A stretch of 64,000 nucleotides of DNA from Laetmonice hystrix (GCA_965235115.1 OZ249436.1:3598001-3662000), one strand, 5' to 3'. Shown: positions 5,501 through 64,000, numbered from the stretch's first letter. The notes: generated by a model not told the origin, from the letters alone. Numbers and translations are program-made.

Positions 5501-8500
5501 CTGCCACGCCACCACAAACCACAGACCCAGTATCAGCCCAGGTCTCTGATGTACCCACTACCAGTTCTTCATCAACCAGTCTCAAGTCATCCATCTCGGA
5601 TACAAGTAAAGTAAGTTTAATGGATACGGAGAGCTCCGGGAACGTTGTGCAGGAAACCCCAGCAGGAGCGCCTAGTGCCAGCTCGAGTGAACCAATCCTA
5701 GCACACACTCAGACTGAGGCTCGGGCCGAGGAACCAATGGAAACTGACGATGTAAAACAAAGGAAGTTCAGTGAGCAACCAATGGAGGAGATTGTTACAA
5801 GGGGCTGCCAGGTGGCACGGGATGAAGTGTCAGGAGTTACTGTACCCGGGAGGCGACCTCCGACTTCTGGTCAACCTGACCTCAGTGCCCTGGAGAATCT
5901 ACCAGGGGTGAATGTCGTCCGTCCCAATGACTTCCATGACCTCTCAGCCGAGGAACAACAGGTAGGTGTTCCCAGAGGTATTCCCAGGGGTGTTCCCGGA
6001 GGTGTTCCCAGAGGTGTTCCCAGAGATGTTCCCAGGGGTGTTCCCAGAGATGTTCCTAGGGGTGTTCCCAGAGATGTTCCCAGGGGTGTTCCCAGAGATG
6101 TTCCCAGGGGTGTTCCCAGAGATGTTCCCAGGGGTGTTCCCGGAGGTGTTCCCAGAGATGTTCCCAGAGATGTTCCCGGAGGTGTTCCCAAAGTTGTTCC
6201 CAGAGGTGTTCCCAGAGCTGTTCCCGGAGCTGTTCCCACAGGTGTTCCCAGAGGTGTTCCCAGGGGTGTTCTTGGAGGTGTTCCCAGAGGTGTTCCCAAA
6301 GGTGTTCCCAAAGGTGTTCCCAAAGGTGTTCCCAAAGGTGTTCCCAGGGGTGTTCCCAGAGGTGTTCCCGGAGGTGTTCCCGGAGGTGTTCCCAAAGGTG
6401 TTCCCAGGGGTGTTCCCAAAGGTGTTCCCAGGGGTGTTCCCAGAGGTGTTCCCGGAGGTGTTCCCAGAGATGTTTCGGGAGGTGTTCCGAGAGGTGTTCC
6501 CAGAGTTGTTCCCAGAGATGTTCCCAGAGATGTTCCCGGAGGTGTTCCCAAAGGTGTTCCCAGAGGTGTTCCCAGAGGTGTTCCCGGAGCTGTTCCCACA
6601 GGTGTTCCCACAGGTGTTCCCAGGGGTGTTCTCGGAGGTGTTCCCAGAGGTGTTCCCAGAGGTGTTCCCAAAGGTGTTCCCAAAGGTGTTCCCGGAGGAC
6701 TAACAAATCAATCACAGCTGAAATGTTATTGTTATAGTTTGTAATTTAAGTTATTGGGTGTGTGTCGACGTTGTTCTGCACTGCTGTGAACTACAATGGT
6801 CATCGAATGCTCAAACAGGAGAGTTATTTATAATTGTAGCAGGCCCGTGCTATGGCTGCCGAAATGTTCCCGCATCTGTTCCCACATGGACTAGGTCATG
6901 GTGGTCGCCCGCGACAACAGCCTAAGCCTCGTCCGCCTCCCCAACCTCTGCAGCCTGTAGCACCCTTTGCTGATTTTAAGGTATACAATAATCTTGCATC
7001 CAAAACCTTATTTCAGTGAGAAGTTATGCTGTTTATTTTTATATTAAGTTTCCTGAACCTCACTTTAATTTTGTTATCTCAACAGTTTCCAGAGGAAACC
7101 AAAGGAAAAGATCTGTATAGGAATGATTTGAGGTAAATCAACCATTTTAACTTGGCATTCTACCTAGTAACCCACCCTATCCCTAGAAAAACTTGGCATT
7201 CTACCTAGTAACCCACCCTATCCCTAGGAAAACCTGGCATTCTACCTAGTAACCCACCCTATCCCTAGAAAAACTTGGCATTCTACCTAGTAACCCACCC
7301 TATCCCTAGAAAAACTTGGCATTCTACCTAGTAACCCACCCTATCCCTAGAAAAACTTGGCATTCTACCTAGTAACCCACCCTATCCCTAGAAAAACTTG
7401 GCATTCTACCTAGTAACCCACCCTATCCCTAGAAAAACTTGGCATTCTACCTAGTAACCCACCCTATCCCTAGAAAAACTTGGCATTCTACCTAGTAACC
7501 CACCCTATCCCTAGGAAAACTTGGCATTCTACCTAGTAACCCACCCTATCCCTAGGAAAACTTGGCATTCTACCTAGTAACCCACCCTATTCCTAGGAAA
7601 ACTTGGCATTCTACCTAGTAACCCACCCTATCCCTAGGAAAACTTGGCATTCTACCTCGTAACCCACCTTATCCCTAGAAAAACTTGGCGTTCTACCTAG
7701 TAACCCACCCTTTCCCTAGAAAAACTTGGCATTCTACCTAGTAACCCACCCTATCCCTAGAAAAACTTGGCATTCTACCTAGTAACCCACCCTATCCCTA
7801 GGAAAACTTGGCATTCTACCTAGTAACCCACCCTATCCCTAGAAAAACTTGGCATTCTACCTAGTAACCCACCCTATCCCTAGAAAAACTTGGCGTTCTA
7901 CCTAGTAACCCACCCTATCCCTAGAAAAACTTGGCGTTCTACCTAGTAACCCACCCTATCCCTAGAACAACTTGGCATTCTACCTAGTAACCCACCCTAT
8001 CCCTAGAAAAAGGACAAATTTCCACTTTGCCAATTTTTTATTTCACATGTCAGTTTCAACAGTTCTTTTTCTCCTAATAGTACTTAAAATATCCCAATAT
8101 TTGTATCTTTCAGTGCATTCAGGAAAGAGGATTACCAGGTAAGCAATATAAGAAACATAAATTTCAGTGAAAAGATCTTGGAATCCAACTGTGTATCTGT
8201 GTGCCAACAATCCTATGCACTGCTGTTACATTACTTGAGCTTGTAGTTTTTGTTGTGGTTGTTCTATTTATAGCCCTGTGACCGTGAAACAGTTTTATTC
8301 TCATTGGATGAAGTCAGACCTGACAAATCGGCTAATGATGGTGAAGGTAAATCTCATATGTTATATATAGGATGATTACATCAGAAAGAAATAACTGTTT
8401 TGTAATCAGTGTGGTATAGTAGCCAGATTAAGTCATGAATACACACAGAGTCGTGAATACACACAGAGTAGTGAATACACACAGAGTCGTGAATACACAC

Positions 8501-11500
8501 AGTCGTGAATACACAGTCGTGAATACACACAGAGTCGTGAATACACACAGAGTCGTGAATACACACAGAGTCGTGAATACACACAGAGTCGTGAATACAC
8601 ACAGAGTCGTGAATACACACAGAGTCGTGAATACACACAGAGTCGTGAATACACACAGAGTCGTGAATACACAGTCGTGAATACACACAGAGTCGTGAAT
8701 ACACACAGAGACGTGAATACACAGAGTCGTGAATACACACAGAGTCGTGAATACACACAGAGACGTGAATACACACAGAGACGTGAATACACACAGAGTC
8801 GTGAATACACACATTACCTTGTCACAGACCCGACACTTGTTGTTTGAATTTAACTGAGCTTTACTTCTTTGTGAATTCTAGAAGAAATTCCAGACGACTT
8901 TTTTGAAGTGACGGTGAACGACTTGCGAAGTATGTGGACAGGCTTACAAAAGAAAGCGTAAGTGCAGCACGACTTTTTAGAGTACAACCTTACAGACACA
9001 AAGAAAGAAAGAGGAGAGAGAGAGAGAGATATCATGGCGGAGAAATATCAGTTAAAACAGAGATGACTAATCGACTGTTTTATAACAAAGACCTCACAAA
9101 CGTAACTTCTGTATCATGTAGGATCATATTATCTGGTCCCAAGATAGGCAAACCAATTATAAAATGTTGTAATATTTCAGGGAATCTTTTGGAGATCAGC
9201 CACTCATGACTTCAGAGATGAGACAACAAGCCAAGGAGGCAAAAATGGCCAAATACCAACGAGTTGTTCTCCGAGTTCAATTTCCAGACAGACTAGTCCT
9301 TCAGGGCATCTTCCGGCCAAGGGAACCAGGTATTATGGAGAATGGCATCACCTCATTCAGTCAAGGCCAGGACATAAGTAAAGTGTAGATGTTAGTTTGA
9401 TAATCTTGTCGTAAACAGATCAAGGGATCATCCAGTGTATTGTTTGTTTCAGTGTATGCCCTGGAGAAATTTGTCAAGGCACACCTGGAGGACAAGACAA
9501 GCTCCTTTTATTTATGTAAGTGCAGTGTTAGAGGTAGAAAGTTTGAGATAAACCCTCATGATTGAAAGTAATCGGTCGTCTGGTTTCAAACGTGAAGTTT
9601 GGAGTTTCCCTGACATTCTGTGCTAAGCCTGATGTTTGTGTATGTAATGGTGTAATAAATCATTATCTCCCGACAGACACCACTCCACCTCGCTGTGTTC
9701 TCAAGGACAAAGCAGAAACATTATTTGATGTGAGTAACAATTAATAGTAATTAATTCACAGTCAAGGGTAATGTGTTCTTGTAGTGAAATCAATGTATCA
9801 GAAGTCGTAACCAATGTATCAGAAGTCGTAACCAATGTATCAGAAGTCGTAACCAATGTATCAGAAGTCGTAACCAATGTATCAGAAGTCGTAACCAGTA
9901 ACCAACGTATCCGGAGTTGTAACCAATGTCGTTGATTTATACTGTCTTTTGTTACAGGCAGATTTGGTTCCAATGACTCTCATCCATTTTGGATCAGATA
10001 CCCAAAGAGGTAGATACTCTTTACTTGATAGCATTTTATATCCATAGCAATAGTAAAATGGAATGTTAAATGTTAATCTTTGATTTGCAGTATATTTTGT
10101 TTGATGTTGCAAGGCGTGTCTTACATGCAACGCTTTTTATTTTATCCAGTTACGATCTTTGATTGGCAGTATATTTTGTTTGATGTTGCAAGGCATGTCG
10201 TACATGCGACGTTTTTTATTTTATCCAGTTACAATCTTTGATTGGCAGTATATTTTGTATGATGTTGCAAGGCGTCTTACATGCGACGTTTTTTATTTTA
10301 TCCCGTTACAATCTTTGATTGGCAGTATATTTTGTATGATGTTGCAAGGCGTGTCTTACGTGCGACGTTTTTTATTTTATCCAGTTACAATCTTTGATTG
10401 GCAGTATATTTTGTATGATGTTGCAAGGCGTGTCTTACATGCGACGTTTTTTATTTTATCCAGTTACAATCTTTGATTGGCAGTATATTTTCTTTGATGT
10501 TGCAAGGTGTGTCTTACATGCAACGTTTTTTATTTTATCCAGTTACAATCTTTGATTGGCAGTATATTTTCTTTGATGTTGCAAGGCATGTCTTACATGC
10601 AATGTTTTTTATTTTATCCAGTTACAATCTTTGATTGGCAGTATATTTTGTATGATGTTGCAAGGCGTGTCTTACATGCGACGTTTTTTATTTTATCCAG
10701 TTACAATCTTTGATTGGCAGTATATTTTGTATGATGTTGCAAGGCGTCTTACATGCGACGTTTTTTATTTTATCCCGTTACAATCTTTGATTGGCAGTAT
10801 ATTTTGTATGATGTTGCAAGGCGTGTCTTACGTGCGACGTTTTTTATTTTATCCAGTTACAATCTTTGATTGGCAGTATATTTTGTATGATGTTGCAAGG
10901 CGTGTCTTACATGCGACGTTTTTTATTTTATCCAGTTACAATCTTTGATTGGCAGTATATTTTCTTTGATGTTGCAAGGTGTGTCTTACATGCAACGTTT
11001 TTTATTTTATCCAGTTACAATCTTTGATTGGCAGTATATTTTGTATGATGTTGCAAGGCGTGTCTTACGTGCGACGTTTTTTATTTTATCCAGTTACAAT
11101 CTTTGATTGGCAGTATATTTTGTATGATGTTGCAAGGCGTGTCTTACATGCGACGTTTTTTATTTTATCCAGTTACAATCTTTGATTGGCAGTATATTTT
11201 CTTTGATGTTGCAAGGTGTGTCTTACATGCAACGTTTTTTATTTTATCCAGTTACAATCTTTGATTGGCAGTATATTTTCTTTGATGTTGCAAGGCATGT
11301 CTTACATGCAATGTTTTTTATTTTATCCAGTTACAATCTTTGATTGGCAGTATATTTTGTATGATGTTGCAAGGCGTGTCTTACATGCGACGTTTTTTAT
11401 TTTATCCAGTTACAATCTTTGATTGGCAGTATATTTTGTATGATGTTGCAAGACGTGTCTTACATGCGACATTTTTTATTTTATCCAGTTACAATCTTTG

Positions 11501-12756
11501 ATTGGCAGTATATTTTCTTTGATGTTGCAAGGTGTGTCTTACATGCAACGTTTTTTATTTTATCCTGTTACAATCTTTGATTGGCAGTATATTTTCTTTG
11601 ATGTTGCAAGGTGGCCATGTGTTCGGATTGTGAAACATACAGATTACAGAATCATTTTAAATAGAAAATGGTAGAAGAGGTTACCAGAAAGTGTGTTTGG
11701 ATGGTGAGGTATACGGAAGCACGAGGTCTGACTGTATAATGGTATTTTTCAAGGAAGTCAAACATTTTTTTTTTTACAGATCCTTACCTGTCATCAGCTG
11801 CCTTAGCAGAGTTGGCCACTCAGGAAGCTGCCAATAGGGTTGTCGTTAAGAAGTGAGTACAAGGAAATTTATTGCTGTAGGTTTACCTAGTAAAATATAA
11901 CTTAGCTCATTCATTGCTGTAGGTTTACCTAGTAAAATATAACTTAGCTCATTCATTGCTGTAGGTTTACCTAGTAAAATATAACTTAGCTCATTCATTG
12001 CTGTAGGTTTACCTAGTAAAATATAACTTAGCTCATTCATTGCTGTAGGATTACCTAGTAAAATATAACTTAGCTCATTCATTGCTGTAGGTTTACCTAG
12101 TAAAATATAACTTAGCTCATTCATTGCTGTAGGTTTACTTAGTAAAATATAACTTAGTTCATTCATTGCTGTTGGTAGCGAGAGAGTGATTGTGGTTTTT
12201 CGCCATGTCAACATCTATGGCCAGCTTCACAAAAGTGAAAGGGACTATACTGTCTGTCCGGTCCTGATGGGAACTATGGTAAAGACCTAGATAACCTTCT
12301 TGGTAAAGACCTAGATAACCAAAGAAGGTAACTTGCATTGACACTTAGTATGAATATCTGTTACAAACAGCATGTCCAACCGGGCAACGTCAGACGTACC
12401 TGTGCCTGGAAGTTCTGGTAATGTTACAAAACACTCAAAAATATCCGACGCTTCTACGTCTGTCCAGGCAGGAACGTCTGGAAGTAAAGGAGATGCCAAG
12501 AAGGTACCCAAGTGGTTCAAGATGGGTGAGTGTGCTTATACAGGGGTCACCTTCATGTCTAGATCAGTGGTTTAAACTTTAACAGGTCAGTAATATGGTA
12601 TCCTGCTCAAAGGTTCCGAAATTTTTAACTTTTATATATTTTTAAAACTGAGAACGACTTAATATGTAATTTCAATTATATGTTGTATATTGGAATGAAG
12701 GAATATAAAACTGTAAATGTGACAATTTCAATGTTACACTTGCAGGTAAAAAATGA
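2523..12756 (+). CDS. ASPSCR1: Tether containing UBX domain for GLUT4 (TUG/ASPL/UBXD9)
   Basis: Exons: 2523-2603, 3649-3707, 3995-4210, 4339-4411, 4861-4934, 5397-5961, 6840-6980, 7086-7132, 8114-8138, 8274-8346, 8882-8957, 9181-9329, 9453-9515, 9677-9729, 9958-10009, 11780-11852, 12371-12525, 12746-12756. All introns GT-AG with consistent phase. The translation resembles human ASPSCR1: [59 protein letters not shown], the UBX segment [21 protein letters not shown], and C-terminal KVPKWFK. Confidence 0.93.
2972..3424. mobile_element. MITE in ASPSCR1 intron 1
   Basis: Left taatggcccggatccacc versus reverse-complemented right taatgcccctgatccacc. Internal tcgca/tgcga subrepeats; TAA/TTA ends (Harbinger-like, inferred). 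Confidence 0.75.
4557..4728. mobile_element. Small MITE in ASPSCR1 intron 4
   Basis: TIR ggggtgcattccactaag versus gggctgcgttccactaag (reverse complement of right end). Internal aaagacgtcttt palindromic repeats. Confidence 0.75.
4730..4806 (+). mobile_element. V-domain SINE-like fragment
   Basis: ggtttgtcag...gtggttttcctcggg-actggtttcctccaccagtaaaactg resembles, from memory, the V-SINE core found in mollusc SINEs. Confidence 0.45.
5965..6698. repeat. 12-bp minisatellite (ggtgttcccaga variants), about 61 copies, starting at the intron 6 donor
   Basis: Directly visible; begins 3 nt after the first base of the GT at 5962. Confidence 0.97.
7149..8010. repeat. 41-bp tandem repeat, about 21 copies
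   Basis: Unit aacttggcattctacctagtaacccaccctatccctagaaa. Confidence 0.97.
8435..8812. repeat. 18-bp tandem repeat, about 21 copies
   Basis: Unit gtgaatacacacagagtc with CA-length variants. Confidence 0.97.
9790..9930. repeat. 21-bp tandem repeat, about 6 copies
   Basis: Unit caatgtatcagaagtcgtaac. Confidence 0.93.
10075..11612. repeat. About 79-bp tandem repeat, about 19 copies
   Basis: Unit ...acaatctttgattggcagtatattttgtatgatgttgcaaggcgtgtcttacatgcgacgttttttattttatccagtt. Confidence 0.97.
11868..12172. repeat. 42-bp tandem repeat, about 7 copies
   Basis: Unit cattgctgtaggtttacctagtaaaatataacttagctcatt. Confidence 0.96.
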
Positions 12757-13339: not shown

Positions 13340-13510
13340 ATTTTGGAGGTGTACGGTTTGATGTACAGGACAATTCTTGTATTTCTGGGACAGGTACGAG
13401 TACGAATGATGTACAGGACAATTCTTGTATTTCTGGGACAGGTACGAGTACGAATGATGCACAGGACAATTCTTGTATTTCTGGGACAGGTACGAGTACG
13501 AATGATGTAC
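13340..13510. repeat. 48-bp tandem repeat, about 3 copies (probable ASPSCR1 3' UTR)
   Basis: Unit gatgtacaggacaattcttgtatttctgggacaggtacgagtacgaat. A candidate AATAAA follows at 13553. Confidence 0.9.
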
Positions 13511-13876
13511 ATTTGCCAGTATAAGTCATTTTGGTGCTCTGTTTGCTTACACAATAAATTGTTTGAAATGAAATCTTTTCTTGTTCAGTGCCTAAGTTAC
13601 AAAAATGAAATGGCTCCTATGGGATTCGTAATGCTAAAGTGACAGGATTACAACGACGTTACAGACCAAACTCGGCTGTTCTCATGTTCTAACTTGACCC
13701 ACTTGCACACCCTATACGTGGTGGGTTGTGATAGATTTACAAACAGGACAAGTACCTACAGCCATCTGATACCTTTGTGTCCATTAAATTATGCTAGGAT
13801 CACTGAATCACTGTAAAAAATGGGCTGCAGTGTTACAAGGGGCACTGTGATTGGTTCCTAGGCTGCGGTGACAATA

Positions 13877-14670
13877 AAAGCGTGTTCCACACAGACAAAG
13901 CGTGTTCCACACAGACAAAGCGTGTTCCACACAGACAAAGCCTGTTCCACACAGACAAAGCCTGTTCCACACAGACAAAGCCTGTTCCACACAGACAAAG
14001 CCTGTTCCACACAGACAAAGCCTGTTCCACACAGACAAAGCCTGTTCCACACAGACAAAGCCTGTTCCACACAGACAAAGCGTGTTCCACACAGACAAAG
14101 CGTGTTCCACACAGACAAAGCGTGTTCCACACAGACAAAGCGTGTTCCACACAGACAAAGCGTGTTCCACACAGACAAAGCGTGTTCCACACAGACAACG
14201 CGTGTTCCACACAGACAAATCGTGTTCCACACAGACAAAGCGTGTTCCACACAGACAAAGCGTGTTCCACACAGACAAAGCGTGTTCCACACAGACAAAG
14301 CCTGTTCCACACAGACAAAGCCTGTTCCACACAGACAAAGCCTGTTCCACACAGACAAAGCCTGTTCCACACAGACAAAGCCTGTTCCACACAAAGCCTG
14401 TTCCACACAGACAAAGCCTGTTCCACACAGACAAAGCCTGTTCCACACAGACAAAGCCTGTTCCACACAGACAAAGCGTGTTCCACACAGACAACGCGTG
14501 TTTCACACAGACAAAGCGTGTTCCACACAGACAAAGCGTGTTCCACACAGACAAAGCGTGTTCCACATAGACAAAGCGTGTTCCACAGACAAAGCGTGTT
14601 CCACATAGACAAAGCGTGTTCCACATAGACAAAGCGTGTTACACATAGACAAAGCGTGTTCCACATAGAC
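13877..14670. repeat. 20-bp tandem repeat, about 40 copies
   Basis: Unit cgtgttccacacagacaaag / cctgttccacacagacaaag. Confidence 0.97.
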
Positions 14671-15107
14671 ACTGATGAAGGCACATCATCAGATAATTGA
14701 TTCCTTTTATTTCAAAATGATAATATCTAATTACTCATCCCTCTGAGAATATTATTAGATTTCCCCAAATAAATATAATTGACGGGGTCAGGAGAGGAAC
14801 CTGGCTCTGATTAGATGTCCTAGGAATATAAAATATGTGTAAACAACCAACATTAATTACTCCACCTATTCGGAATGAGTAAACATGACAACAGTAACTA
14901 CGGGGTAATTCCAACATGTGCTTCAGGTGTTGTATAGCTGACAAATTTAACACATTAATTATCATTGACCAATTAACGCATAAACTTAGCAATAAAAGGT
15001 TTCCTCGGCAACTGGTGGCTGTATTATAACAGATCACAATAATAATAATAACGGCATTGTTTCTGGAACATCATGTTTACAAGAATTATTATCCGAAAGT
15101 CGTTCTC

Positions 15108-16806
15108 CAAGGCAACCATGACAATGTTATCTCCCGTGATGAAGAGCTGGTTGGCATGGCGCCTCATGAGACCCGATTCGTTCTCGTACTGAAGACATCA
15201 TGAGGTCACCAAGGCAACCATGACAATGTTATCTCCCCTAATGAAGAGCTGGTTGGCATGGCGCCTCATGACACCCGATTCGTTCTCAGACTGAAGACAT
15301 CATGAGGTCACCAAGGCAACCATGACAATGTTATCTCCCCTAATGAAGAGCTGGTTGGCATGGCGCCTCATGACACCCGATTCGTTCTCAGACTGAAGAC
15401 ATCATGAGGTCACCAAGGCAACCATGACAATGTTATCTCCCCTAATGAAGAGCTGGTTGGCATGGCGCCTCATGACACCCGATTCGTTCTCAGACTGAAG
15501 ACATCATGAGGTCACCAAGGCAACCATGACAATGTTATCTCCCGTGATGAAGAGCTGGTTGGCATGGCGCCTCATGAGACCCGATTCGTTCTCGTACTGA
15601 AGACGTCAGGAGGTCACCAAGGCAACCATGACAATGTTATCTCCCGTGATGAAGAGCTGGTTGGCATGGCGCCTCATGAGACCCGATTCGTTCTCGTACT
15701 GAAGACGTCAGGAGGTCACCAACGCAACCATGACAATGTTATCTCCCCTAATGAAGAGCTGGTTGGCATGGCGCCTCATGAGACCCGATTCGTTCTCGTA
15801 CTGAAGACATCATGAGTTCACCAAGGCAACCATGACAATGTTATCTCCCCTGATGAAGAGCTGGTTGGCATGGCGCCTCATGACACCCGATTGTTCTCAG
15901 ACTGAAGACATCATGAGGTCACCAAGGCAACCATGACAATGTTATCTCCCCTGATGAAGAGCTGGTTGGCATGGCGCCTCACGAAACCCGATTGTTCTCA
16001 GACTGAAGACATCATGAGGTCACCAAGGCAACCATGACAATGTTATCTCCCGTGATGAAGAGCTGGTTGGCATGGCGCCTCACGAAACCCGATTGTTCTC
16101 AGACTGAAGACATCATGAGGTCACCAAGGCAACCATGACAATGTTATCTCCCCTGATGAAGAGCTGGTTGGCATGGCGCCTCATGAGACCCGATTGTTCT
16201 CAGACTGAAGACATCATGAGGTCACCAAGGCAACCATGACAATGTTATCTCCCGTGATGAAGAGCTGGTTGGCATGGCGCCTCATGAGACCCGATTCGTT
16301 CTCGTACTGAAGACGTCAGGAGGTCACCAACGCAACCATGACAATGTTATCTCCCCTGATGAAGAGCTGGTTGGCATGGCGCCTCATGAGACCCGATTCG
16401 TTCTCGTACTGAAGACGTCAGGAGGTCACCAACGCAACCATGACAATGTTATCTCCCCTAATGAAGAGCTGGTTGGCATGGCGCCTCATGAGACCCGATT
16501 CGTTCTCGTACTGAAGACATCATGAGTTCACCAAGGCAACCATGACAATGTTATCTCCCCTAATGAAGAGCTGGTTGGCATGGCGCCTCATGAGACCCAA
16601 TTGTTCTCAGACTGAAGACATCATGAGGTCACCAAGGCAACCATGACAATGTTATCTCCCCTGATGAAGAGCTGGTTGGCATGGCGCCTCACGAAACCCG
16701 ATTGTTCTCAGACTGAAGACATCATGAGGTCACCAAGGCAACCATGACAATGTTATCTCCCCTGATGAAGAGCTGGTTGGCATGGCGCCTCATGAGACCT
16801 GATTCG
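15108..16806. repeat. 101-102-bp tandem repeat, about 17 copies, made from the LSM11 C-terminal coding end plus stop codon
   Basis: On the minus strand each unit encodes MRRHANQLFI(R/T)GDNIVMVALVTS* or a close variant. The rightmost copy is the genuine gene end. Confidence 0.97.
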
Positions 16807-19800
16807 TCAACTTTTCTCTCACCACTTCTTAATGAAATTGGCCTTCTGGAAGTAGACCGTTCAACATCGTATCGTGTTTCTACCACGCCAGAAGTTGGCT
16901 TAACCGCATGTTTCCCCTCACCACCCACACCAGGCAATGCTCTCGTCAGTGATGCAGACTTGTGGAGAGGTCGAGGATCCTCCTGAGACCTTTGAGTTCT
17001 TTGACTTTTCTCGCTTGACTTTCCTCTCTCAACTTTCTCTCGGTAATCAACTGAAAGTCGGTGAGACCTTCCTGTTGTTGGCAGGTCTTCACCTGTTCGC
17101 TTGGATTGTGACATAGGTAAATACCTTTCTACATTTAATTTTTTCTCACTCTTTGACTTTGATTCTTCCGAATCACTTCCTTTCCTATGCCGTGTATGTC
17201 TATCATCCCTTGGTGTTGGTCGTTCTTTAAAATCCTCTCTTGAAAGAGATTCGCTAGACTGGCCTTTCGGAGTTCTATCCTTCAGGACAACTTTCTCCCC
17301 GCTCTGACGAGAGCCAGTGGGTGTAGGTGTTCTGGACACTGGTTTTACATTTGATTTTAAATGAACGTCTCTTCTGTCTTTCGATTCTTCAGAGTGCTTT
17401 GCTTGTTTGTATTTTTCAGTATCCCTGACTCGTTCGTCATGGAGCGATTCTCTTCTGACAGGCTCCCTGTGAACTGATCGCGAAGGATGACTGGGAGAAC
17501 TCTCCTGGCCTTTTTCATTCCTTCCCCGCCTCAGTTTGGACCGTAGATCAAAGGGGGCAGATGATTGATCATCGACTGATGATTGGGATCTGGTGGGTTC
17601 GCTTGAAACTTGACTACTTCCAGCAGGAGCATGACCCTCAGAGCCTACCTCAGATTTGGACTTTGATTGGGATCTGATGGGTTCACTTGAAACTTGACTA
17701 CATGTACTTCCAGCAGGAGCATGACCCTCAGAGCCTACCTCAGATTTAGACTTTGATTGGGATCTGATGGGTTCACTTGAACCTTGACTACTTCCAGCAG
17801 GAGCAGAACCCTCAGGGCCTACCTCAGATTTGAACTTTTTGTCCGTTTTTTCAGGATGGATATCCGTTTGTTTAGTCCTCTCCTCCACAGATCTTTGGTC
17901 TTGGCCAGATAATCCACGACTTGAATGTTTCTCTTGATCTGCTTTTGATGCAGAATGTTCTTCCTTTCTCCCTTTGGACTTGGAGAGTTTCTCTTTTTTG
18001 GGAGTCCTTTCTTTTTCCTTCGTTTCGGCTTCCTCTGTCTTTTCAAGTTCTGATAGTTCTTGTTTTAGGTTGGTTAAATGTGACATTAGCTGCTGAAGAG
18101 TTTCCTCATCATCTGAATCGTCAGGATCATCTCCATCGTCTGTGACTGCTGGGTCAGTCTCTCCGGAGTCTTCCGTTTGACTTAACTCACTTTCTGTTGT
18201 CTCCACCTCGCTTTGATCATCCTCACTTGTTGTTTCTGTGTACTCCATTGGTTCTGGTACTGGATTGGCCGAGCCATCGTCACATTCCTGCCCCTCCTCC
18301 AGACCTGCCCGACTAGTGCTGGCTTCTGCTGCTTTAGATTCCTCTTGTTTTGGGGGACCATCAACTTGATCCTGAATTTCAAGGTGCTCTGTCTCATCAC
18401 TTTCATCACTGCTTGCTGACAATGACAAGGAAGCAGTTCCGTCTAGCTGGGCTTCAACCGGTATGGTGTTTTGTGACTTCAGGGGCCTGGTGTTCTCAGC
18501 AGCCTTTGCTGCCCTGCTGCACTCAGCTTCTGATCCTGTATCAGTGGTCTCTTTTGCCTTTAAGGAAGAAAATGTTCATTGATCATTAATCATATGCACA
18601 ATACATAGTTTGTGTCAATTATCACTATTATACTTACACTACTCAAAGAAGTTTGGGATATGTAGCTTCCAATCGGAATTGTGTTTGAAATATAGAAATG
18701 ACAATACTTTTCGTGAATTGTGAATGAAACTATGGATATGTTAAGTAAAACAAAATCCAAGTAACACCAACATCTCCTGGTGTCTAAATTTGTTGGAGTC
18801 TGCTTATGACACTCTGTCGACATCAGTCTATCTGCTTCCAGTTTACAACCTTGCACTGGCCAGATAACATTCTTCCTCTGTGAGGTGTCTACGTTGCACC
18901 ATAATGTCACAAGTTACTGTGAATTGGTGCCATTTTCTAAATTTTAGTGCAGACCCCTTTGTCCAGGTACTGGTAGAGCCTATTGTGCAACCAATACCAG
19001 GGTTGGGTTCACAAGCAGTCAAGTTCATTTAAATTAAATAAAAATCCATTTTAACCAATCAGATTCAAGTAAAAGGGACGTCAAGTTAATTAAAATGGAC
19101 TTGATTTTGCTTGTGAACTGGGCCCAGAGTCAAGTGAGTACTCTAGTTTTACATTAATTATCATTAGGTATTTAAATAACGTTCTTACTACTATATCCCT
19201 TACTTGTTATACAAAACAACAGAATTTCATATATTGAAAGGATCACATACTTGATATTAACATTTTTAATAATACCTACCACTTTTTTCTTCCGTACTCG
19301 AATTTTTCTTTCTTGCTTAGTTCGTGGACCAGCTGGTTTATACAGCTCATCGACATCTAGCATTGCCTGAAATAAAATGCAAAGAAAATATCAAATAAAT
19401 GTTAGAGACTTAGGGCAACTGACTTGAATTTGGCTATATACCTGTAACATAAGCTCATCGTAAGCCAGTCACTTGAGTTTCACTTTGGAATTATTAGTTT
19501 CTTATACATGTACATCATATTATGTCTGTATATGTCTAGAATTAATGTACTTGCCATGTTCCAGTGTGTATCAAAGGCAGCAACATAACCAGTGCAGATG
19601 CCTCTTACATGCTTGTAACTTCTCACCCACACTTTAACCTTCAAGCGCTCTTTAACAGCACGATACAAGATACTGAGGGGGCCATACTGAGCTTCTGAAA
19701 AATCCAAAAGAATGAATTTATCATATTAAATTAAAAATGATTTGTTTTATCTCTCTGCATAATGGTACTTAAAATCCTAATATCTATTGACACATTAATG

Positions 19801-24500: not shown

Positions 24501-25138
24501 TGATGGCCATGAGGAGTCGGCACTCTGACACCATCCAGACGCTCAAGTCACGCTTCTTGAAGGACAAGTACAAATACCAGCAGGACTCAGAAGCCAAGAT
24601 CTCAGCCATGTCCAAACAAGCCAATAAGGTGTGAAGCAAAGCCATGTTGTCTAATCCTGTGATATTAAAGTCTGTGCTGCTGATTGAGAGGATCCAGACT
24701 GTTCCGTCTTGTTTTCCTCAGGTTCAGCCTGGAATGAGTCATCGTTGTATCTCAATACGACATACCATTGATAATTCTTTTCTCGTCAGATTTGGAGACA
24801 GATGTTTCAGATGTTTGTATAATAATAATGTTTTATTTGATTGTCACTAGGAGGCCATGCAGTGCCTGTCTGATCACACACAGCAGATCATGCTGCAGAA
24901 CCGCAAACAGCGTCACGAACTGCTCATGTTAATCCGCAAGACACGGTCACTCCGCGAACATATGGTTCATCTGGAGGATCAACAACGGCAGCTCAAACTA
25001 GAGCAGCAGTATGCCCAGGACCTGAAGGCTCTCCGTGGCACGCGGCAGCACAAAGTGATCAAGAGTTTTGGCCTTGATGAGGAGACAATCGATAGAAGGA
25101 CAGAGAAAACGGCACAGCTGGCCATAGGCAGTGGGTAG
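21529..25138 (+). CDS. CCDC166: Coiled-coil domain-containing protein 166-like (DUF4515 family)
   Basis: Exons 21529-21638, 23038-23091, 23238-23437, 24161-24240, 24452-24628, 24851-25138; 909 nt, 302 aa. MPPKKKKGK start, LRQENEWL, EYMSYM, LQEYKNLQKEQQTRIKELEKEV, LKSRFLKDK and LSDHTQQIMLQNRKQRHELLMLIRKTR align by eye with human CCDC166. Confidence 0.82.
23092..23237 (+). other. U12-type (minor spliceosome) GT-AG intron
   Basis: Donor GTATCCTTTCC, branch site TACCTTGAC about 11 nt before the AG at 23236-23237, no polypyrimidine tract; splicing preserves the reading frame. Confidence 0.88.
23449..23864. mobile_element. Non-autonomous DNA transposon with 8-bp TSD (Merlin-like)
   Basis: TSD aattgaat at 23441-23448 and 23865-23872. 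About 38-bp TIR ggtgtctggacgtttcgagcgcgaaccagttcgagcgc / ggtcccaggacgtttcgagcgcggaccagttcgagcgc. Confidence 0.9.
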
Positions 25139-55405: not shown

Positions 55406-55421
55406 CAGTACTGGAGTAAAG

Positions 55422-58400
55422 ATGGCAACTGACCTGACGTCGGGTAGGTGTTGACCACACGAAATAAATGTCTTTAACAAGGTAATGTGGATTGCCAATT
55501 ATTTTGGAAACCTAGAGCGAGGATTAACCTTTAACGATCTTCTCGTTCTATTATATTTCAGGGTCAGTGCCTCCGTTGTACCGTGAGGTTTATGACATCG
55601 TGTGTCCGAATCAGGAACATGTGGATCATGATATGTTTCTCAAGTTGCTTGTGAAATCTTCCCTCCCGTCTCAAACATTATCGCAGGTCAGTATCAGCAT
55701 GTCAGTACTCGGAATAAAAGCCATAGATTTAGTCGCCCTCAATTCAAGAAGTCATGTGGCTTTCTAAAGCTGTGTGAACCTTACTCAATCGGTTAATTAG
55801 AGTCTACAGGAGACCCTCTTCAAAAAGTGGGCGTTTCACCACACAGCCACAGCCACAGCCACTTGAATTAGAAGGCGGTACGAGAGTAGGTCGAGCGGCT
55901 CGACCTCACATAATGATCCACAGCTGTGATGCAATGCACAATGGGCAGGAGAAGGCTGTGTTTACTTGTAAATTTTACTGCATTATCCCATGGATTTAGC
56001 CTTGGCTTACGTCAACATAATTTCAGCAACATTTATTTAGCATCGTTGATTGAAAGCTAAGCCTTAACTAAGCTGACTTTGATTTACAGCATGTTCTGTT
56101 GTACAGGCATGTACAAGTTACAGCATGTACAAGTTACATTGTAACATGTTTCAAAGCTGGTTATAGTCTTCTGATATCCCCAAGGGCTAAAAATACAGGG
56201 ACGATAATTTTCTGCATTTAAAAAAAAAAGTGGTTATTCTTGCGATCGATCCAACAAGCCGACAATATAAATGTTACTTTGACTGTAGATCAGGAAAAAA
56301 ATCAGTTGAAATATATATATCCAAAAATGCACCAGAACATCTACAACAGGGCTGTCAAAGTTGGCAGGAGTAGCAGGGTATCTAAGAGAGAAAGTAGCGG
56401 GGTACCACCCTGGGGGGGAGGGGCCTACCCTGGAAAAATTTGAAAAAATGCCCCCCTGGGATGCAATTTCCTGGCATCTGAGAGGGGTAATTGGTCATCA
56501 CTGACATGTTGTTTTGGTACATGATGAGGCAGGAAAGTGAAAAAAGAACATTGTTAACAAGATCTTTTGTCATTCAACAAAAAGTAGGCGGCAGCAAAAC
56601 TGGTTTTAGACGAAGTTTTGCCGCTGCAGACCGGCTACTTTTGAGAGCCCTGCTACAATTTCAAAATTTCCAGGAAGGACATGTTCCTGGACCCTCCTAG
56701 ATGGGCTTGCTTCACTCGTCGACTTTCCCCTGTACCCTGGTACAGCACGTGAATAAGGGCAATCTGTTTTCATCTGAATCATCACCCAAAGGGTTTAGAA
56801 GACGGTAGGCACATTACCAACACAGTGCCTGCCTTATGAAAGGAGCACAGGAGCCATCAATGGCTTCTGTATATCTTATGTTAGGGGAGCCTGGTTAAGG
56901 GGAGTGTTAGTGGATGCCCCCTCCCCCTCCCAACTCAAAATGAGGAAGGAAAATCAAACATTGGGAAGTTAAGCCTCCAGTGAATGGTTATTTACCCATT
57001 ATTTATTGAGTGGTTTAAGATTTCTAGACATCCATGTGACTGTGGGAAATTCCCTCATTTATGTAAAGCATGGTACACAGTGATGTAATTAAAACAGCCT
57101 TAAATTTAAAAGTTGAGTCAATTTGTTGATTATGCCTATGGAAGTGATCATTTGCATTCAAATTTTCAAATTTACGGGGTAAACAGGAGTGAGAGTGATC
57201 ACTCCCGTCTATTCAAAGGGTCTGCTAATGGCTGTCAGATATGATATATTTATGTGTATAAAAGATGTAATGTACAATCTATCTATGTGCATGACAGTTT
57301 TAGCTTTAAATCTGGCTAGATGTCTTGTACATAATAATTGATACTATAAAATTCACACAAACTAATAGTGCTTTGACTTTGGATAGAGAACTGTTGCTAC
57401 ATTGAAGTGACTCAGAGAGAACCAAACCTCAGCCTAACTTGCCATGGTGAACAGCTGTGTGCCTGTACTCCAACACTACATTGAAGGCTAATGAATTTGG
57501 CACCCTGTTTATGTCTACAGGTGATAGCCAAGCACAGATGGTGCACTAGTTGTGGCCATGTGGAAACAGACTCTGGTCAGGTTCTGCCCTGTGGAACCTG
57601 CATAAAATATCCTGCTACAGCACTGAACAGCTCAACAATAAAATACCCTGGTACAACACTGAACAGCTCAACAATAAAATACCCTGGTACAGCACTGAAC
57701 AGCTCAACAATAAAATACCCTGGTACAGCACTGAACAGCTCAACATTAAAATACCCTGGTACAGCACTGAACAGCTCAACAATAAAATACCCTGGTACAG
57801 CACTGAACAGCTCAACAATAAAATACCCTGGTACAGCACTGAACAGCTCAACAATAAAATACCCTGGTACAGCACTGAACAGCTCAACAATAAAATACCC
57901 TGGTACAGCACTGAACAGCTCAACAATAAAATACCCTGGTACAGCACTGAACAGCTCAACATTAAAATATCCTGGTACAGCACTGAACAGCTCAACAATA
58001 AAGTACCCTGGTACAGCACTGAACAGCTCAACAATAAAATACCCTGGAACAGCACTGAACAGCTCAACATTAAAATACCCTGGTACAGCACTGAACAGAT
58101 CAACAATAAAATACCCTGGTACAGCACTGAACAGCTCAACAATAAGATACCCTGGTACAGCACTGAACAGCTCAACAATAAAATACCCTGGTACAGCACT
58201 GAACAGCTCAACAATAAAATACCCTGGTACAGCACTGAACAGCTCAACAATAAAATACCCTGGTACAGCACTGAACAGCTCAACAATAAAATACCCTGGT
58301 ACAGCACTGAACAGCTCAACAATGAAGTAGCTGGATGTGACCTAGCTAGGTTGATTTAAGGACCGAGTGCTTATGCCATTACAAGGAGTTGGTTGGATGT

Positions 58401-61400
58401 GGGTCAGTCTGAATGAGTTAAAAAAGGAGGTGCTGAATAAATCATGATGCTGATGATGTGAGCAGTGGAGTTTCAGGAAAAATTTGTAATATCATTATCT
58501 TATTGAAACAAGCGACACCAATGTAAAGATATGAATAAGTACATAGTAGTAGTATTGTATTGGTGACAACTCATTCTTCATCTGACCATTAAAACTTGAA
58601 AGATAATCAGAAATTCTGTATCACTGTACTCTACCTTTTGTCAAACAGTACAGTACTGAATCATGGTCAGTACCGGTAGCCGGGGTCAGTCATATAACAT
58701 TTGAGAAGAACCGTTGTCAGTCCCAAAATCAACTCTTCAAAAAATCTTGTTAATTATTATAAAATGGAGATGTTTTTTGTTACCAGCAATGTCATTGTGA
58801 TTTAGGCAGCGAGGCACAGTTCTTTTGTTGGCGTTTCCTTACTTTTGTATGCCACATGCATATGGAGTGCTTCATGAGACAAGCTGGTGATACATGTACC
58901 TCCCAAGTGCAATAATTCCCCTTGAAAACAACCTTTTAACCTTAAACAAAGGGCAACTCATGTATGTGTCAGAAACTCCCCAAAGGTATACATGTGCAAT
59001 TACAGTTTCTTCAGAAACTTATGAGAAATAACTGTTGTACTCCAATGAGAGAGTTATGCAGTGAAAACTTTAAAGATCATGTTTTTTTCAGATTTGGGAA
59101 GCAGTAGACAACAGGCAGGGATTTCTGAGTAGGAATGGCTTATATAAAGCTCTGGCACTGACTGCGCTGGCTCAGCAGGGCAAGTCAATCAATGAAAAGA
59201 TTCTGGAAAAGTACTCGGACACAGGTAAATATTTATTGTCTGTCGGTATAGTCCTTTTATTTCTATACAAATTCTCAGATAAAGTGAAAATAATTAACAA
59301 AAAAATTAGAACAATAATCATTTTTAAAAAGTAGGTTTAGAACGTAGGTCAAGAATTCCTACAATTCATGCTCCTTTTTTTTTCAGAACTTCCAAAGCCC
59401 AACTTGGGAGATTTGTCTGACCTGAAAAGGTTGAGTATCCAAGTGAGGCGGCAGAAGACTCCTAACATGTTAGGGTATCGGTTCCATGAACTGATTGAAC
59501 TTGATACTATCAAGGTTGAGCTGGTCCCCGAGAAGAAGGGCCTCATCCTCAAGCACATAGAGTATGAAGTTACGAGTCAGGTTGGTATTTGAAAGACATG
59601 TTAGCAGGGCGTTCAAATTGTTTGTAAGTAGGCGGGGATTAGGCCAAAGTAGCAGGCAACATCACTTTTATTTTCGTCCTCAAGTGCAGTCAACTTCTCT
59701 AATGCACACTGTTGAGTTATTAACTGGGTTTTATGCCATTTTGAGCATATAACCTTGCAATTTTGGCATCTTGAAAACAAATATCAATTTTTTTTTTGTC
59801 AGCTGACGTAAAGTAGCCATCGCAGGTTGCCCTTGGAGATGGGGATCGTGCCAGCCACCGGCTTAATTTGAAAGCCCTGTGCTCGATCACTGAACTTGAA
59901 AACATTTTTGGGGGGTACAAAAATTACCCATTTTTTAAATGCAGCATAGCTGCATTTTTTTTACATTATTTTCTAATCAGTAATTTCCCATTTTGTTTTG
60001 TTGCAGCGTTATCGGACAACAGTACTTCGAAGATACAATGACTTCATGGCTTTCCAGGAAATGTTGTTACTCAGATATCCCTACAGAATGATTCCAAAAC
60101 TGCCACCAAAGAAAATAATGGGCGGTAAGAAAGTTTGTTTAACTTGATTCTGATATTCGTGAAGAACACAGAAAAACAAATTAAAAGAAAAATCGCACCA
60201 AAAAAAAAAACCAGCATGTTAATTTTAGATCATAATGTTGCATTGAATTCTAATTGACATTATAATTAAAGCAAGGTTGATTTTGTTTCAGCAGCAGATC
60301 GTGAGTTTATTGAGCAGCGGCGGCGAGCATTACGGAGATTCTTGAACCTTGTCGCACGTCATCCCGTCCTTTATGATGATGGCATTGTCAAATATTTCTT
60401 CACGTTCAATGGATCGGTGAGTGTGTCAGATTGATACAGAACATAATACAGCAAAGATTTGAAGTGATGGGTAAAAAGCAAAGAAATTTTTCATGGTTTT
60501 TGAAACTATCATCTTTCTAAAGTATAATAGTTTGAGAAAGTAAAGTTTCAAAATGCCTTTGAGAGTGTTTTGGATAGTAGTATTCTGTCACTGATACTGA
60601 ATAATCCATCATTTTATTTACAGGATATGCAACACAAAATCAAAGAACACTTTCGTGGGGTCCCTGATGAATTCATGACCAGTGAAAATGCTATGAAAGC
60701 AAAGGTAGGGAGAACATAGCCCTGCACATTCTCACAGAAAAGTTTTGTCACTTGAGTGAATGGACTTTATTTAGTAGCTAATTAAATGGAAGTGTCAGAT
60801 ACAGGGTCAGGATTACTTAAGTTTTCTCCTGTCTCCCCTTCAGGAGCTGGTACCGATGGATACTCAGGTTCAGTTCAGTAACAGCCGAGAACACATCAAG
60901 GCTCTCATTCACGGCGTCACTCAAATCAAAAATATCACAGAGGCAATGGTTCGGAGACACACAAGTTACGCCAGTGACATGCTACAGCTGGGCAAGGAGC
61001 TGGGGTAAGGACACTTGGAAGGAAATCATTCGGGAAATAATAGCAAAAGAAATATTTTTATCATTAAAGTTTTGAATAAAGTCCTCATAATTTGCTGTGT
61101 TTGGAATTGAAACTTGAAGCAGTTAAGGAAATCCAATGTTGATGTATTTTAAAATGTTACCTTTTATCAAACCAGGACTCTTGCAGCTGATACAGCACCA
61201 GTCTCAGTATGGGCCAGTGGATCAAACGACACGTGGTCTCACCTAAAGCGTGGTTTCAAACATCTGTCGGTAGAGTATGCTACCCTGGCAGATAAAGCAA
61301 GAACCCAGGCTATACGGGAGGACCGAGGACTTGTTGAGGACCTCAACCTATTCCTGGACCTCCTCCATTCATATCGAGTATGTCTAATTGGATCGGTGTC

Positions 61401-64000
61401 ACAAAAACATGATCTTTATTGAAACCTTCTCCAAGTTTGATATCCCTGTCAGTGTAGTCAGTCACCGTGACGTCCTAAAACATTTTCTTGTAGTATTGCG
61501 TCAGTAAATATGATGTCCTATCAACTTAACATAATGGTCCATTTTTTTAAGGATCTGTGTGAGCGAATTGAACGTGGTGTCCTACACGACCACCAGAGGG
61601 CACTACAGAAGCTTGGCCAGTACAAGAAGAAACACATGTCGGCAACTGTCCAGGGGAGCGAACAGAATGCTGTAGAGCAGCTGGAGCAGCGCATTCTGAT
61701 GGTAGGATAGCTTCCCATTATGTGGTGAATGATTGTCCAGGGGAGCAAACAGAATGCTGTAGAGTAGCTGGAGCAGCGCATTCTGATGGTAGGATAGCTT
61801 CCCATTATGTGGTGAATGATTCACGACAGGAGTGAACAGAATGCTGTAGAGCAGCTGGAGCAGCGCATTCTGATGGTAGGATAGCTTCCCATTATGTGGT
61901 GAATGATTCACGAGGGGAGTGAACAGAATGCTGTAGAGCAGCTGGAGCAGCGCATTCTGATGGTAGGATAGCTTCCCATTATGTGGTGAATGATTCACGA
62001 GGGGAGTGAACAGAATGCTGTAGAGCAGCTGGAGCAGCGCATTCTGATGGTAGGATAGCTTCCCATTATGTGGTGAATGATTCACGAGGGGAGTGAACAG
62101 AATGCTGTAGAGCAGCTGGAGCAGCGCATTCTGATGGTAGGATAGCTTCCCATTATGTGGTGAATGATTCACGAGGGGAGTGAACAGAATGCTGTAGAGC
62201 AGCTGGAGCAGTGCATTCTGATGGTAGGATAGCTTCCCATTATGTGGTGAATGATTCACGAGGGGAGTGAACAGAATGCTGTAGAGCAGCTGGAGCAGCG
62301 CATTCTGATGGTAGGATAGCTTCCCATTATGTGGTGAATGATTCACGAGGGGAGTGAACAGAATGCTGTAGAGCAGCTGGAGCAGCGCATTCTGATGGTA
62401 AGATAGCTTCCCATTATGTGGTGAATGATTCACGAGGGGAGTGAACAGAATGCTGTAGAGCAGCTGGAGCAGCGCATTCTGATGGTAGGATAGCTTCCCA
62501 TTATGTGGTGAATGATTCACGAGGGGAGTGAACAGAATGCTGTAGAGCAGCTGGAGCAGCGCATTCTGATGGTAGGATAGCTTCCCATTATGTGGTGAAT
62601 GATTCACGAGGGGAGTGAACAGAATGCTGTAGAGCAGCTGGAGCAGCGCATTCTGATGGTAGGATAGCTTCCCATTATGTGGTGAATGATTCACGAGGGG
62701 AGTGAACAGAATGCTGTAGAGCAGCTGGAGCAGCGCATTCTGATGGTAGGATAGCTTCCCATTATGTGGTGAATGATTCACGAGGGGAGTGAACAGAATG
62801 CTGTAGAGCAGCTGGAGCAGCGCATTTTGATGGTATGATAGCTTCCCATTATGTGGTGAATGATTCACGAGGGGAGTGAACAGAATGCTGTAGAGCAGCT
62901 GGAGCAGCGCATTCTGATGGTAGGATAGCTTCCCATTATGTGGTGAATGATTCACGAGGGGTTTACTTTTGTAAAAAAAAATGTACAAATCCTGTATGCC
63001 AGAAGAAAAATGAAGGTCAAGCTTTTCTTCATCTATTATTTATGGCTTACGGCCTTACAGTGATAAAGTATAAAATGATACTAGTTCCCTGCTACTACCG
63101 GTAGTTTCATTAGTTGCTGGTAAGAATTTTAGGTATACATGAACCTCTACCTATGCTGGACCAAAGATTGGGTTTGCAGGTAAGGCCTTATGCAATCAAA
63201 AATTACTAGAGGACAGTCCAGGTTTCCAAATGCCCATATCATGAAAAGCATATTTCTATTAGTTAAAAACGTTGCCTGCTTCTCAAAGAGGCAGGCAACT
63301 ATTCTGCCTCTTTTCTTCGATTACTGCCTGCCCTTGCTGGGTATTGTATGGTGCTGGCATTTGTATTATTATTCAGGTCTACAGTGTGAGTGGTCGGAAC
63401 AGCCAAGGTTCATGTATTATTATTCAGGTCTACAGCGTGAGTGGTCGGAACAGCCAAGCCAAGGTTCATGTATTATTATTCAGGTCTACAGTGTGAGTGG
63501 TCGGAACGGCCAAGGTTCATGTATTATTATTATTCAGGTCTACAGTGTGAGTGGTCGGAACAGCCAAAGTTTATGTATTATTATTATTCAGGTCTACAGT
63601 GTGAGTGGTCAGAACAGCCAAGGTTCATGTATTATTATTCAGGTCTACAGCGTGAGTGGTCGGAACAGCCAAGGTTCATGTATTATTATTCAGGTCTACA
63701 GTGTGAGTGGTCGGAACGGCCAAGGTTCATGTATTATTATTCAGGTCTACAGTGTGAGTGGTCGGAACAGCCAAGGTTCATGTATTATTATTCAGGTCTA
63801 CAGCGTGAGTGGTTGGAATGGCCAAAGCTCATGCGTTTTTTCTTCTTTCTTGCAGCAAGAGAGTGAGATCTCGAACATAGAGACCCGGAACTACTTTTCC
63901 CTGCATTGTGTTCAGATGGAGACACAGCTAATCCATGCGAACCTGGAGAGTCTCTACAATGCTCTCAGCTCTATGGCTAATGATGAGGCCAAGTCACACT
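55422..64000 (+). CDS. SNX8: Sorting nexin-8 (Mvp1 family PX-BAR), 3'-truncated by the window
   Basis: Exons 55422-55443, 55562-55686, 59092-59224, 59387-59580, 60007-60124, 60295-60416, 60624-60704, 60844-61004, 61176-61377, 61552-61701, 63856 to beyond 64000. PX motifs [72 protein letters not shown] motifs [18 protein letters not shown] and [19 protein letters not shown]. Confidence 0.94.
56347..56652. mobile_element. Non-autonomous TIR element with 6-bp TSD (hAT-like CAGGG ends)
   Basis: ctacaa|cagggctgtcaaag ... ttttgagagccctg|ctacaa. Confidence 0.75.
57603..58323. repeat. 39-bp tandem repeat, about 18 copies
   Basis: Unit taaaataccctggtacagcactgaacagctcaacaa. Confidence 0.97.
59605..59879. 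mobile_element. Non-autonomous TIR element (CAGGGC ends)
   Basis: cagggcgttcaaatt versus reverse-complemented cagggctttcaaatt; TSD degenerate. Confidence 0.65.
61645..62961. repeat. 87-bp tandem repeat, 15 copies, made from the SNX8 exon 10 end plus donor
   Basis: gaacagaatgctgtagagcagctggagcagcgcattctgatg|gtaggatag... with GT donors from 61702 to 62920 at 87-bp spacing. Confidence 0.97.
63362..63830. repeat. 51-54-bp tandem repeat, about 9 copies
   Basis: Unit tgtattattattcaggtctacagtgtgagtggtcggaacagccaaggttca. Confidence 0.95.

Follow-up and report, generated by a model that had tools for sequence, protein, structure and literature searches.

The 64,000-nucleotide stretch of Laetmonice hystrix DNA analyzed here (GCA_965235115.1 OZ249436.1:3598001-3662000; hereafter the window) is crowded with minisatellite arrays, and four of these arrays contain a boundary of a predicted gene. 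Five gene models were predicted from the sequence alone, laid out by coordinates from open frames and canonical splice sites, with one GC donor: an ASPSCR1/TUG-like gene, LSM11, a coiled-coil gene, an IQ-motif gene that we take to be IQCE-like, and SNX8 (Table 1). None contains an internal stop. With the arrays removed, the 58 modelled introns have a median length of 222 bp and a minimum of 93 bp.

Minisatellite arrays in the window

An earlier note on this DNA had counted about 26 arrays with 12-102-bp units, roughly 20 kb in total or about 30% of the window. Tandem Repeats Finder (TRF) bore out this count, and the coordinates held. Merging its 43 rows gave 33 arrays covering 20,251 bp, of which 26 are at least 100 bp long. 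These large arrays have units of 12-102 bp and occupy 19,885 bp, or 31.1% of the window. All but one (25 arrays, 19,763 bp) lie within 5965..63830, the range marked out in the note, and fill 34.2% of it. Introns total 41.1 kb, 15.6 kb of which is array. When every array is collapsed to a single unit, there is one large array per 1.75 kb of DNA. The density is patchy: six ASPSCR1/TUG-like introns between 5964 and 12176 hold one array of at least 100 bp each, and the 9.5 kb at 16808-26275, comprising LSM11 and the coiled-coil gene, hold none of that size.

The note's observation that no unit sequence is common to the arrays also proved correct within the window. None of the 325 pairs among the 26 large arrays shares a 12-mer, and seven pairs share one or two 10-mers. 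Off-array blastn matches within the window were at chance level, except for two that lie near their own arrays: an exact 17-bp match to the 36-bp unit at 56732-56748, in the same intron and about 0.9 kb upstream of the array at 57602 (E = 2e-4), and a 23-bp match just beyond the end of the array at 26276 (E = 0.004). We found no dispersed satellite family in the window, as none of the 26 arrays has related units at a separate locus.

Two further features of this DNA may be recorded here. Unit length is a multiple of three in 14 of the 26 arrays, against about 9 expected, a pattern that was noticed post hoc and may be chance; nearly all of the arrays are noncoding. Intronic and intergenic DNA also carries palindromic or inverted-repeat elements that resemble miniature inverted-repeat transposable elements (MITEs), at 3025-3217, 38713-39083, 48725-49250 and 54191-54380, and positions 48779-48941 form a near-perfect palindrome of 163 bp.

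Gene boundaries inside arrays

Four modelled boundaries lie inside arrays: the LSM11 stop codon (16722-16724), an IQCE-like acceptor (34284), an IQCE-like donor (49803) and an SNX8 donor (61701). The earlier note had named the same four, and the predicted gene models confirm them. In SNX8, the 87-bp unit combines about 50 nt of the exon 10 tail with 37 nt of intron. The array contains 15 donors, 13 of which have an identical 9-mer, and splicing at each of the 14 later donors, or decoys, would run into an in-frame stop at intronic codon three. A model that uses the first donor gives a junction without an insertion or deletion within 10 residues in 119 of 125 homologs and in 37 of 42 further cluster members. 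The remaining homologs differ near the junction by one to four residues, and none has a unit-sized insertion. The predicted SNX8 junction is supported by these homologs. The genuine donor is weak, with 5 of the 58 modelled sites scoring lower.

Both boundary sites in the IQCE-like gene are modelled from the reading frame, IQ motifs and a paralogous exon. The donor unit is almost entirely exon tail, with 6 nt of intron; all six donors are identical, and the five later ones are decoys that lead to a frameshift or stop. The other array presents 48 copies of an acceptor, with the genuine site in the last transcribed copy. The 47 upstream copies lead to a stop or frameshift, and the last alone is open and in frame. 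This acceptor is also weak (4 of 58 sites score lower) and is the least secure of the four boundary cases. The exon that it opens, exon 20 (34177-34284, minus strand), is a paralog of exon 19 (38312-38419, minus strand): both are 108 nt long and encode an IQ motif, with 76% identity over 68 nt, and they stem from an older exon duplication. The IQ motif of exon 20 scores over the Pfam cut-off, and comparison of its first 26 codons with exon 19 gives 10 identical, 7 synonymous and 9 replaced. Exon 20 could be skipped, given its weak acceptor, its symmetric phase (108 nt) and the presence of a paralog in exon 19.

The 102-bp unit in LSM11 encodes the C-terminus of Sm2, matching LSm11 residues 326-358 of 360, together with the stop. 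The stop used by the model (16724-16722, minus strand) lies in the first transcribed copy, and the last copy is missing 24 nt, the stop among them. The predicted C-terminus is supported by solved LSm11 chains.

All 66 decoys (14 + 5 + 47) are unproductive, ending in a stop or frameshift, and the spliceosome would presumably have to ignore them. In each boundary case the genuine copy is terminal, as the earlier note had pointed out. The arrangement follows from geometry: the end copy alone remains attached to the rest of the exon. Three more arrays begin within about 20 nt of a donor, again as noted before: those at 5964, 7149 and 11867, at distances of 2, 16 and 14 nt. The first of these, a 12-bp array (5964..6698), takes in donor positions +3 to +6, and the real exon 6 donor there is strong, with 54 of the 58 sites scoring lower.

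Arrays avoid exons and show no enrichment at splice junctions

Collapsing each array to one unit left 45,438 bp with 116 junctions, over which length-matched units were placed at random. Three arrays span a junction, compared to 3.2 expected when units may fall anywhere, 3.5 when they are confined to viable placements or to gene spans, and 3.6 when they are kept in the host intron. Similarly, six arrays lie within 20 nt of a junction, and the four nulls predict 5.2-5.7. Arrays have a mean position quantile of 0.50 in their host introns, with 9 nearer the donor and 11 nearer the acceptor. The outcome was the same with three alternative array or exon sets, in which the seven TRF arrays shorter than 100 bp were restored, two doubtful IQCE-like exons were added, or exon 17 was dropped.

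Boundary overlap is real, and it is not above chance in the window. The earlier note had proposed that amplification was either biased to splice boundaries or filtered by selection. The bias is unsupported, because no enrichment at junctions is left once short introns are allowed for, which is the measure that the note itself had named. Filtering, by contrast, receives support: none of the 26 arrays is wholly exonic, compared to 3.7 expected (P = 0.019). This avoidance of exons is a clear departure from chance. The one exonic repeat found, by means other than TRF, is the degenerate triplication in LSM11 exon 4.

Origin and growth of the arrays

Most arrays end in register with their own units. 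Array length falls within 9 bp of a whole number of units in 21 of 26 arrays, compared to 12.5 expected (P = 1e-4), and among arrays with units of at least 36 bp, 14 of 19 are in register where 6.4 would be expected (P = 3e-4). Such ends fit duplication in place followed by whole-unit expansion. An overhang of at least 3 nt occurs in 6 of the 16 arrays having an overhang of up to 12 nt, compared to 7% of 1,500 simulated random duplications, although the simulated units were perfect, and overhangs arising by chance may be underestimated.

In most arrays adjacent units are more alike than distant ones, and whole blocks have been copied: an 11-unit variant block is repeated in the 70-bp array (34280..37694) and a 5-unit variant block in the 79-bp array (10075..11611). 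Variation within arrays consists of point changes and indels in ordered blocks, with up to 18 variant types in 36 units. Greater divergence of terminal units is not general, being found in 9 of 17 arrays.

The earlier note had held that each array was amplified in place from local DNA. Local origin is shown for the four arrays whose unit includes host coding sequence, and it is likely for the others, judging from their in-register ends and the lack of shared units. The note's broader suggestion of a very active local process of tandem amplification is supported.

Unequal exchange and conversion are a familiar growth step of minisatellites, and we propose that the arrays formed as follows. A local piece of 12-102 bp would be duplicated head to tail, probably through break repair or slippage and often at 2-9 nt of microhomology. 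The dimer would then grow by whole units and by blocks of units through unequal exchange or conversion; the pattern of growth is visible in the arrays, and the enzymes are our inference. Within the window, seeds land where chance places them, and since introns contain little unique DNA (median 222 bp), roughly one-sixth of the units run across a splice junction. Selection would then purge arrays inside exons and tolerate those that span junctions or stops, since the exon-joined copy is used and use of a decoy leads to a premature stop or frameshift.

A candidate microexon in SNX8 intron 10

Each 51-bp unit of the array at 63362..63833 contains an acceptor-like site, nine in-frame bases (Val-Tyr-Ser) and a donor-like site, and this cassette is repeated nine times in a phase 0 intron, at 63377-63804. 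The acceptor-like site scores about 10, compared to a real-site median of 9.0, and the donor-like site scores 5.6, at the 10th percentile. In 22.5 kb of intron DNA elsewhere, a cassette of this kind turns up once, giving about 0.05 expected among the units, with thresholds that were set post hoc. No three-residue insertion is present at the SNX8 junction in any of the 125 homologs or 42 further cluster members (167 sequences). Only about 50 nt separate the last cassette from the real acceptor, whereas the shortest unique intron is 93 nt, and before amplification the intron downstream of the cassette would also have measured about 50 nt. The 9-nt cassette is probably a silent pseudo-exon.

A bolder picture, which we regard as doubtful, is that this probable annelid is a natural "tandem duplicator," with gene-dense DNA that seeds a new private minisatellite every 2 kb or so, amplification that reshapes splicing, microexons created or unmasked, and perhaps a modest genome-wide bias to exon edges or stops. 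If that were true, the early copies of the ninefold cassette in SNX8 intron 10 would have gained enough distance from the next exon to be included by splicing.

Gene models and placement of the host

Exon 3 of the ASPSCR1/TUG-like model matches Pfam TUG-UBL1 (E = 3e-8). The LSM11 model matches LSm11 chains with E values of 2e-10 and 3e-4, and a search with its last exon gave one match among 8,000 scored candidates. The one GC donor among the models opens LSM11 intron 2, after 19555 on the minus strand. Between its Sm1 and Sm2 parts, within 16722-18557 (minus strand), the predicted protein carries over 500 inserted residues of acidic, low-complexity sequence, an insertion also found in a relative, P0001. 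The coiled-coil gene, which we take to be CCDC166-like, gave DUF4515 matches under the Pfam cut-off. Two exons of the IQ-motif gene score over the cut-off for Pfam IQ; the name IQCE, adopted here as an assumption from the earlier note, was not confirmed by an Atlas search with one exon, which returned generic coiled-coil clusters only. Between the starts of the IQCE-like gene and SNX8, a cysteine-rich open frame of about 80 codons lies at 54522-54761 (minus strand), with a donor-like site near 54474.

Two long open frames within arrays were set aside as coding sequence. The one in the 12-bp array (460 codons) follows a strong donor and reaches a stop 260 codons on, and the one in the 45-bp array (about 500 codons) goes unused by the gene model that closes around it.

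The SNX8 model is 64-71% identical to its closest homologs; a word search with a single SNX8 exon gave no match among 46. In a quick tree of 48 rows, made up of the window model and 47 homologs hand-picked from 120 listed, the window falls in a lophotrochozoan clade with a Shimodaira-Hasegawa approximate likelihood ratio test (SH-aLRT) value of 99, and its sister is the annelid Paralvinella (92). Identity is 64-65% to six Branchiostoma sequences, compared to 66-69% to Haliotis, Lingula, Paralvinella and Owenia. Judging from the SNX8 tree, the host is a lophotrochozoan and probably an annelid; a lancelet host, which had also been considered, was rejected on the tree and these identities.

Table 1. 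Gene models and repeat arrays in the window. Arrays were located with TRF.
Feature	Coordinates	Strand	Remarks
Array, 20-bp unit x6.1	472..593	.	outside coding spans, upstream of 5965..63830
ASPSCR1/TUG-like gene model	2523..12756	+	17 exons, 614 aa; open frame
Array, 12-bp unit x61	5964..6698	+	starts 2 nt past exon 6 donor dinucleotide
Array, 41-bp unit x21	7149..8011	+	begins 16 nt past donor 7132
Array, 18-bp unit x21	8431..8813	+	intron 9
Array, 21-bp unit x6	9791..9925	+	ends 32 nt short of acceptor 9958
Array, 79-bp unit x19.5	10075..11611	+	intron 14; 38 acceptor-like sites
Array, 42-bp unit x7.4	11867..12176	+	begins 14 nt past donor 11852
Array, 48-bp unit x3.2	13359..13511	.	between 3' ends of ASPSCR1 and LSM11
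Array, 20-bp unit x40	13877..14671	.	between 3' ends of ASPSCR1 and LSM11
Array, 102-bp unit x16.7	15107..16807	-	holds LSM11 Sm2 C-terminus and stop
LSM11 gene model	16722..21220	-	4 exons, 849 aa; open frame
In-frame triplication, 84/90/84 bp	17580..17837	-	LSM11 exon 4; degenerate; absent from TRF list
Coiled-coil gene model	21529..25548	+	7 exons; no array of at least 100 bp
Array, 41/46-bp units x32	26276..27668	.	between 3' ends of coiled-coil and IQCE-like genes
Array, 84-bp unit x2.6	28729..28946	.	downstream of IQCE-like stop
IQ-motif (IQCE-like) gene model	29201..52233	-	24 exons, 793 aa; open frame
Array, 45-bp unit x35	29499..31094	-	IQCE-like last intron
Array, 67-bp unit x15	31512..32547	-	IQCE-like intron 21
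Acceptor array, 70-bp unit x48	34280..37694	-	holds acceptor 34284 of IQCE-like exon 20
Array, 52-bp unit x3	41386..41543	-	
Array, 27-bp unit x7	42492..42679	-	
Array, 63-bp unit x5	44436..44750	-	copies all identical
Array, 51-bp unit x3.1	45205..45362	-	
Array, 98-bp unit x6	47477..48060	-	ends 59 nt short of acceptor 47417
Donor array, 74/75-bp unit x6	49419..49872	-	holds IQCE-like donor after 49803
Array, 43-bp unit x17.6	50806..51569	-	ends 31 nt short of acceptor 50774
Array, 31-bp unit x12	51650..52017	-	IQCE-like intron 1
SNX8 gene model	55422..63999	+	11 exons, 485 aa; continues past window; named homologs
Array, 36-bp unit x20	57602..58323	+	SNX8 intron 2
Donor array, 87-bp unit x15	61652..62961	+	holds SNX8 donor after 61701
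Array, 51-bp unit x9	63362..63833	+	SNX8 intron 10; ends 22 nt short of acceptor 63856

Comparison with known systems

Tandem duplications of exon-intron boundaries, called mirages, have been described in the lancelet genes for Adh3, the globins BflGb6 and BflGb9, troponin C and PGBD5, where they leave splicing undisturbed and vary in copy number (PMC3087553, PMC3902484). Three arrays in the window have the structure of a mirage, with units of 70, 74 and 87 bp that cross a junction and include host exon sequence, and with splice signals kept in many copies (13 of 15 SNX8 donors, all six IQCE-like donors and 48 acceptors). As in the lancelet examples that those reports present, a donor or acceptor lies within units measuring from tens of bp to about 150 bp, the copies run into the intron, the repeat is specific to its locus, and edge units escape homogenization. 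The likeness is structural, as read from genomic sequence. Unlike the cephalochordate cases, the host here is a lophotrochozoan and probably an annelid by the SNX8 tree, copy number reaches 48, and the boundary arrays are 3 of 26 in DNA that is 31% array.

A 37-bp variable number tandem repeat (VNTR) in intron 7 of human F7 is described as using its most upstream donor alone, through 5'-to-3' oriented scanning; the same source lists donor-spanning minisatellites in human 6-16, CBS, LAMIN B2 and PDGF, with one or two proximal pseudo-sites used in 6-16 and CBS (PMC1557585). In the donor arrays, as in that account of F7, the first unit lies across the donor and later units are identical pseudo-donors. 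In contrast to these single, donor-side mammalian cases, the window also has a ladder of acceptors and an array that holds a stop codon, at one array per 1.75 kb of collapsed DNA. By structure, its boundary-spanning arrays are minisatellites of the mirage or F7 type.

The seeding step also has a described counterpart. In mouse and human cells, small tandem duplications are reported to form at breaks by CST/Pol alpha fill-in and end joining or by Pol theta joining, with microhomology at the junction more frequent in the Pol theta class (PMC8355091). The units found here resemble the duplications in that report in being under about 100 bp and in giving in-register local copies. Those duplications are single, however, whereas our arrays run to tens of copies; a second process is needed, and the repair pathway is something we infer from the arrays. 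Earthworm metallothionein introns contain minisatellite blocks with repeats common to several species (PMC12783039), and there too annelid introns have been enlarged by tandem repeats of minisatellite size. Unlike the window arrays, those repeats are not reported to span splice sites, as far as that account describes them. Among open-licence papers and preprints, our searches turned up neither a description of mirages in annelids nor a test of enrichment across a genome. The window presents a known kind of repeat at an unusual density, in a lineage for which we found no report.

Alternative explanations

We consider it likely that small tandem duplications arise at a high rate in this region and that the arrays are neutral minisatellites seeded locally. 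Several results weigh against this reading. Five arrays have ends far out of register, the simulated overhangs may be too few, and for the 22 arrays without host coding sequence local origin was tested against the 64-kb window only. Other results would favor duplication seeded preferentially at exon edges and stops, a mutational bias that might stem from breaks, from R-loops tied to splicing or from exon-positioned nucleosomes. Twelve arrays lie within 70 nt of a junction, compared to 8.5-9.6 expected (P = 0.09-0.22; P = 0.09-0.11 against 8.5), a weak trend that diminishes when placement is confined to host introns (12 against 10.1, P = 0.23). Nine of 20 arrays sit in introns of at most 400 bp, which make up 27% of intron length (P = 0.06). 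Among all 34 repeats, two fall within 30 nt of a stop where 0.32 would be expected (P = 0.04, in one of 12 stop tests), and with the 26 large arrays alone the count is one against 0.12 (P = 0.11). Two of four stops are affected, that of LSM11 and that of the IQCE-like gene, which has a two-copy 33-bp duplication (29107-29172) 29 nt beyond it. The 95% interval of the observed-to-expected ratio for spanning arrays, about 0.2-2.5 in this small sample, would also accommodate a twofold bias. Even so, a boundary bias seems unlikely: the spanning and 20-nt counts sit at chance in all four nulls and all three alternative sets, and there is no asymmetry between donor and acceptor.

Many of the intronic arrays might alternatively belong to dispersed satellite families or be cargo of mobile elements, with only the four coding-sequence arrays born at their loci. 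The search for relatives covered 64 kb, MITE-like palindromes occupy the same introns, and a carrier element would also show in-register ends. However, the 26 units are mutually unrelated, none of the arrays lies inside the listed palindromic elements, and the four testable units derive from the host, and we judge such an origin improbable. It is less probable still that the ladders are functional, with decoy donors or acceptors or the repeated 9-nt cassette tuning splicing or yielding isoforms. Decoys could compete because so few of the 58 sites score below the genuine SNX8 donor (5) or IQCE-like acceptor (4), proximal pseudo-sites are described as used in human 6-16 and CBS (PMC1557585), and the in-frame cassette of the 51-bp unit has an expectation of about 0.05 under its post hoc thresholds. 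Set against this, 66 of 66 decoys are unproductive, the three-residue insertion is absent from all 125 homologs and all 42 cluster members, and the last cassette stands closer to its acceptor (about 50 nt) than the shortest unique intron is long (93 nt). Assembly or sequencing artefacts are the least credible source, given ordered blocks of point changes and indels with up to 18 variant types in 36 units, 26 unrelated units, and arrays that avoid exons. The three sequencing runs listed for this DNA come from one sample in one study; no RNA run is among them, a result that does not bear on expression.

Implications

Boundary-spanning minisatellites, so far an anecdote from lancelets and a few human genes, become a countable case in this window, where short introns and a high seeding rate suffice to explain them. 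The arrays are also a hazard for gene prediction, as they can give rise to false exons and C-terminal repeats. If the same density held genome-wide, the organism would offer many natural ladders of donors and acceptors, including the 48-copy acceptor ladder described here. Such ladders would be useful for studying splice-site scanning and exon definition outside mammals, and they also bear on the proposal that mirages are a source of new introns or exons.

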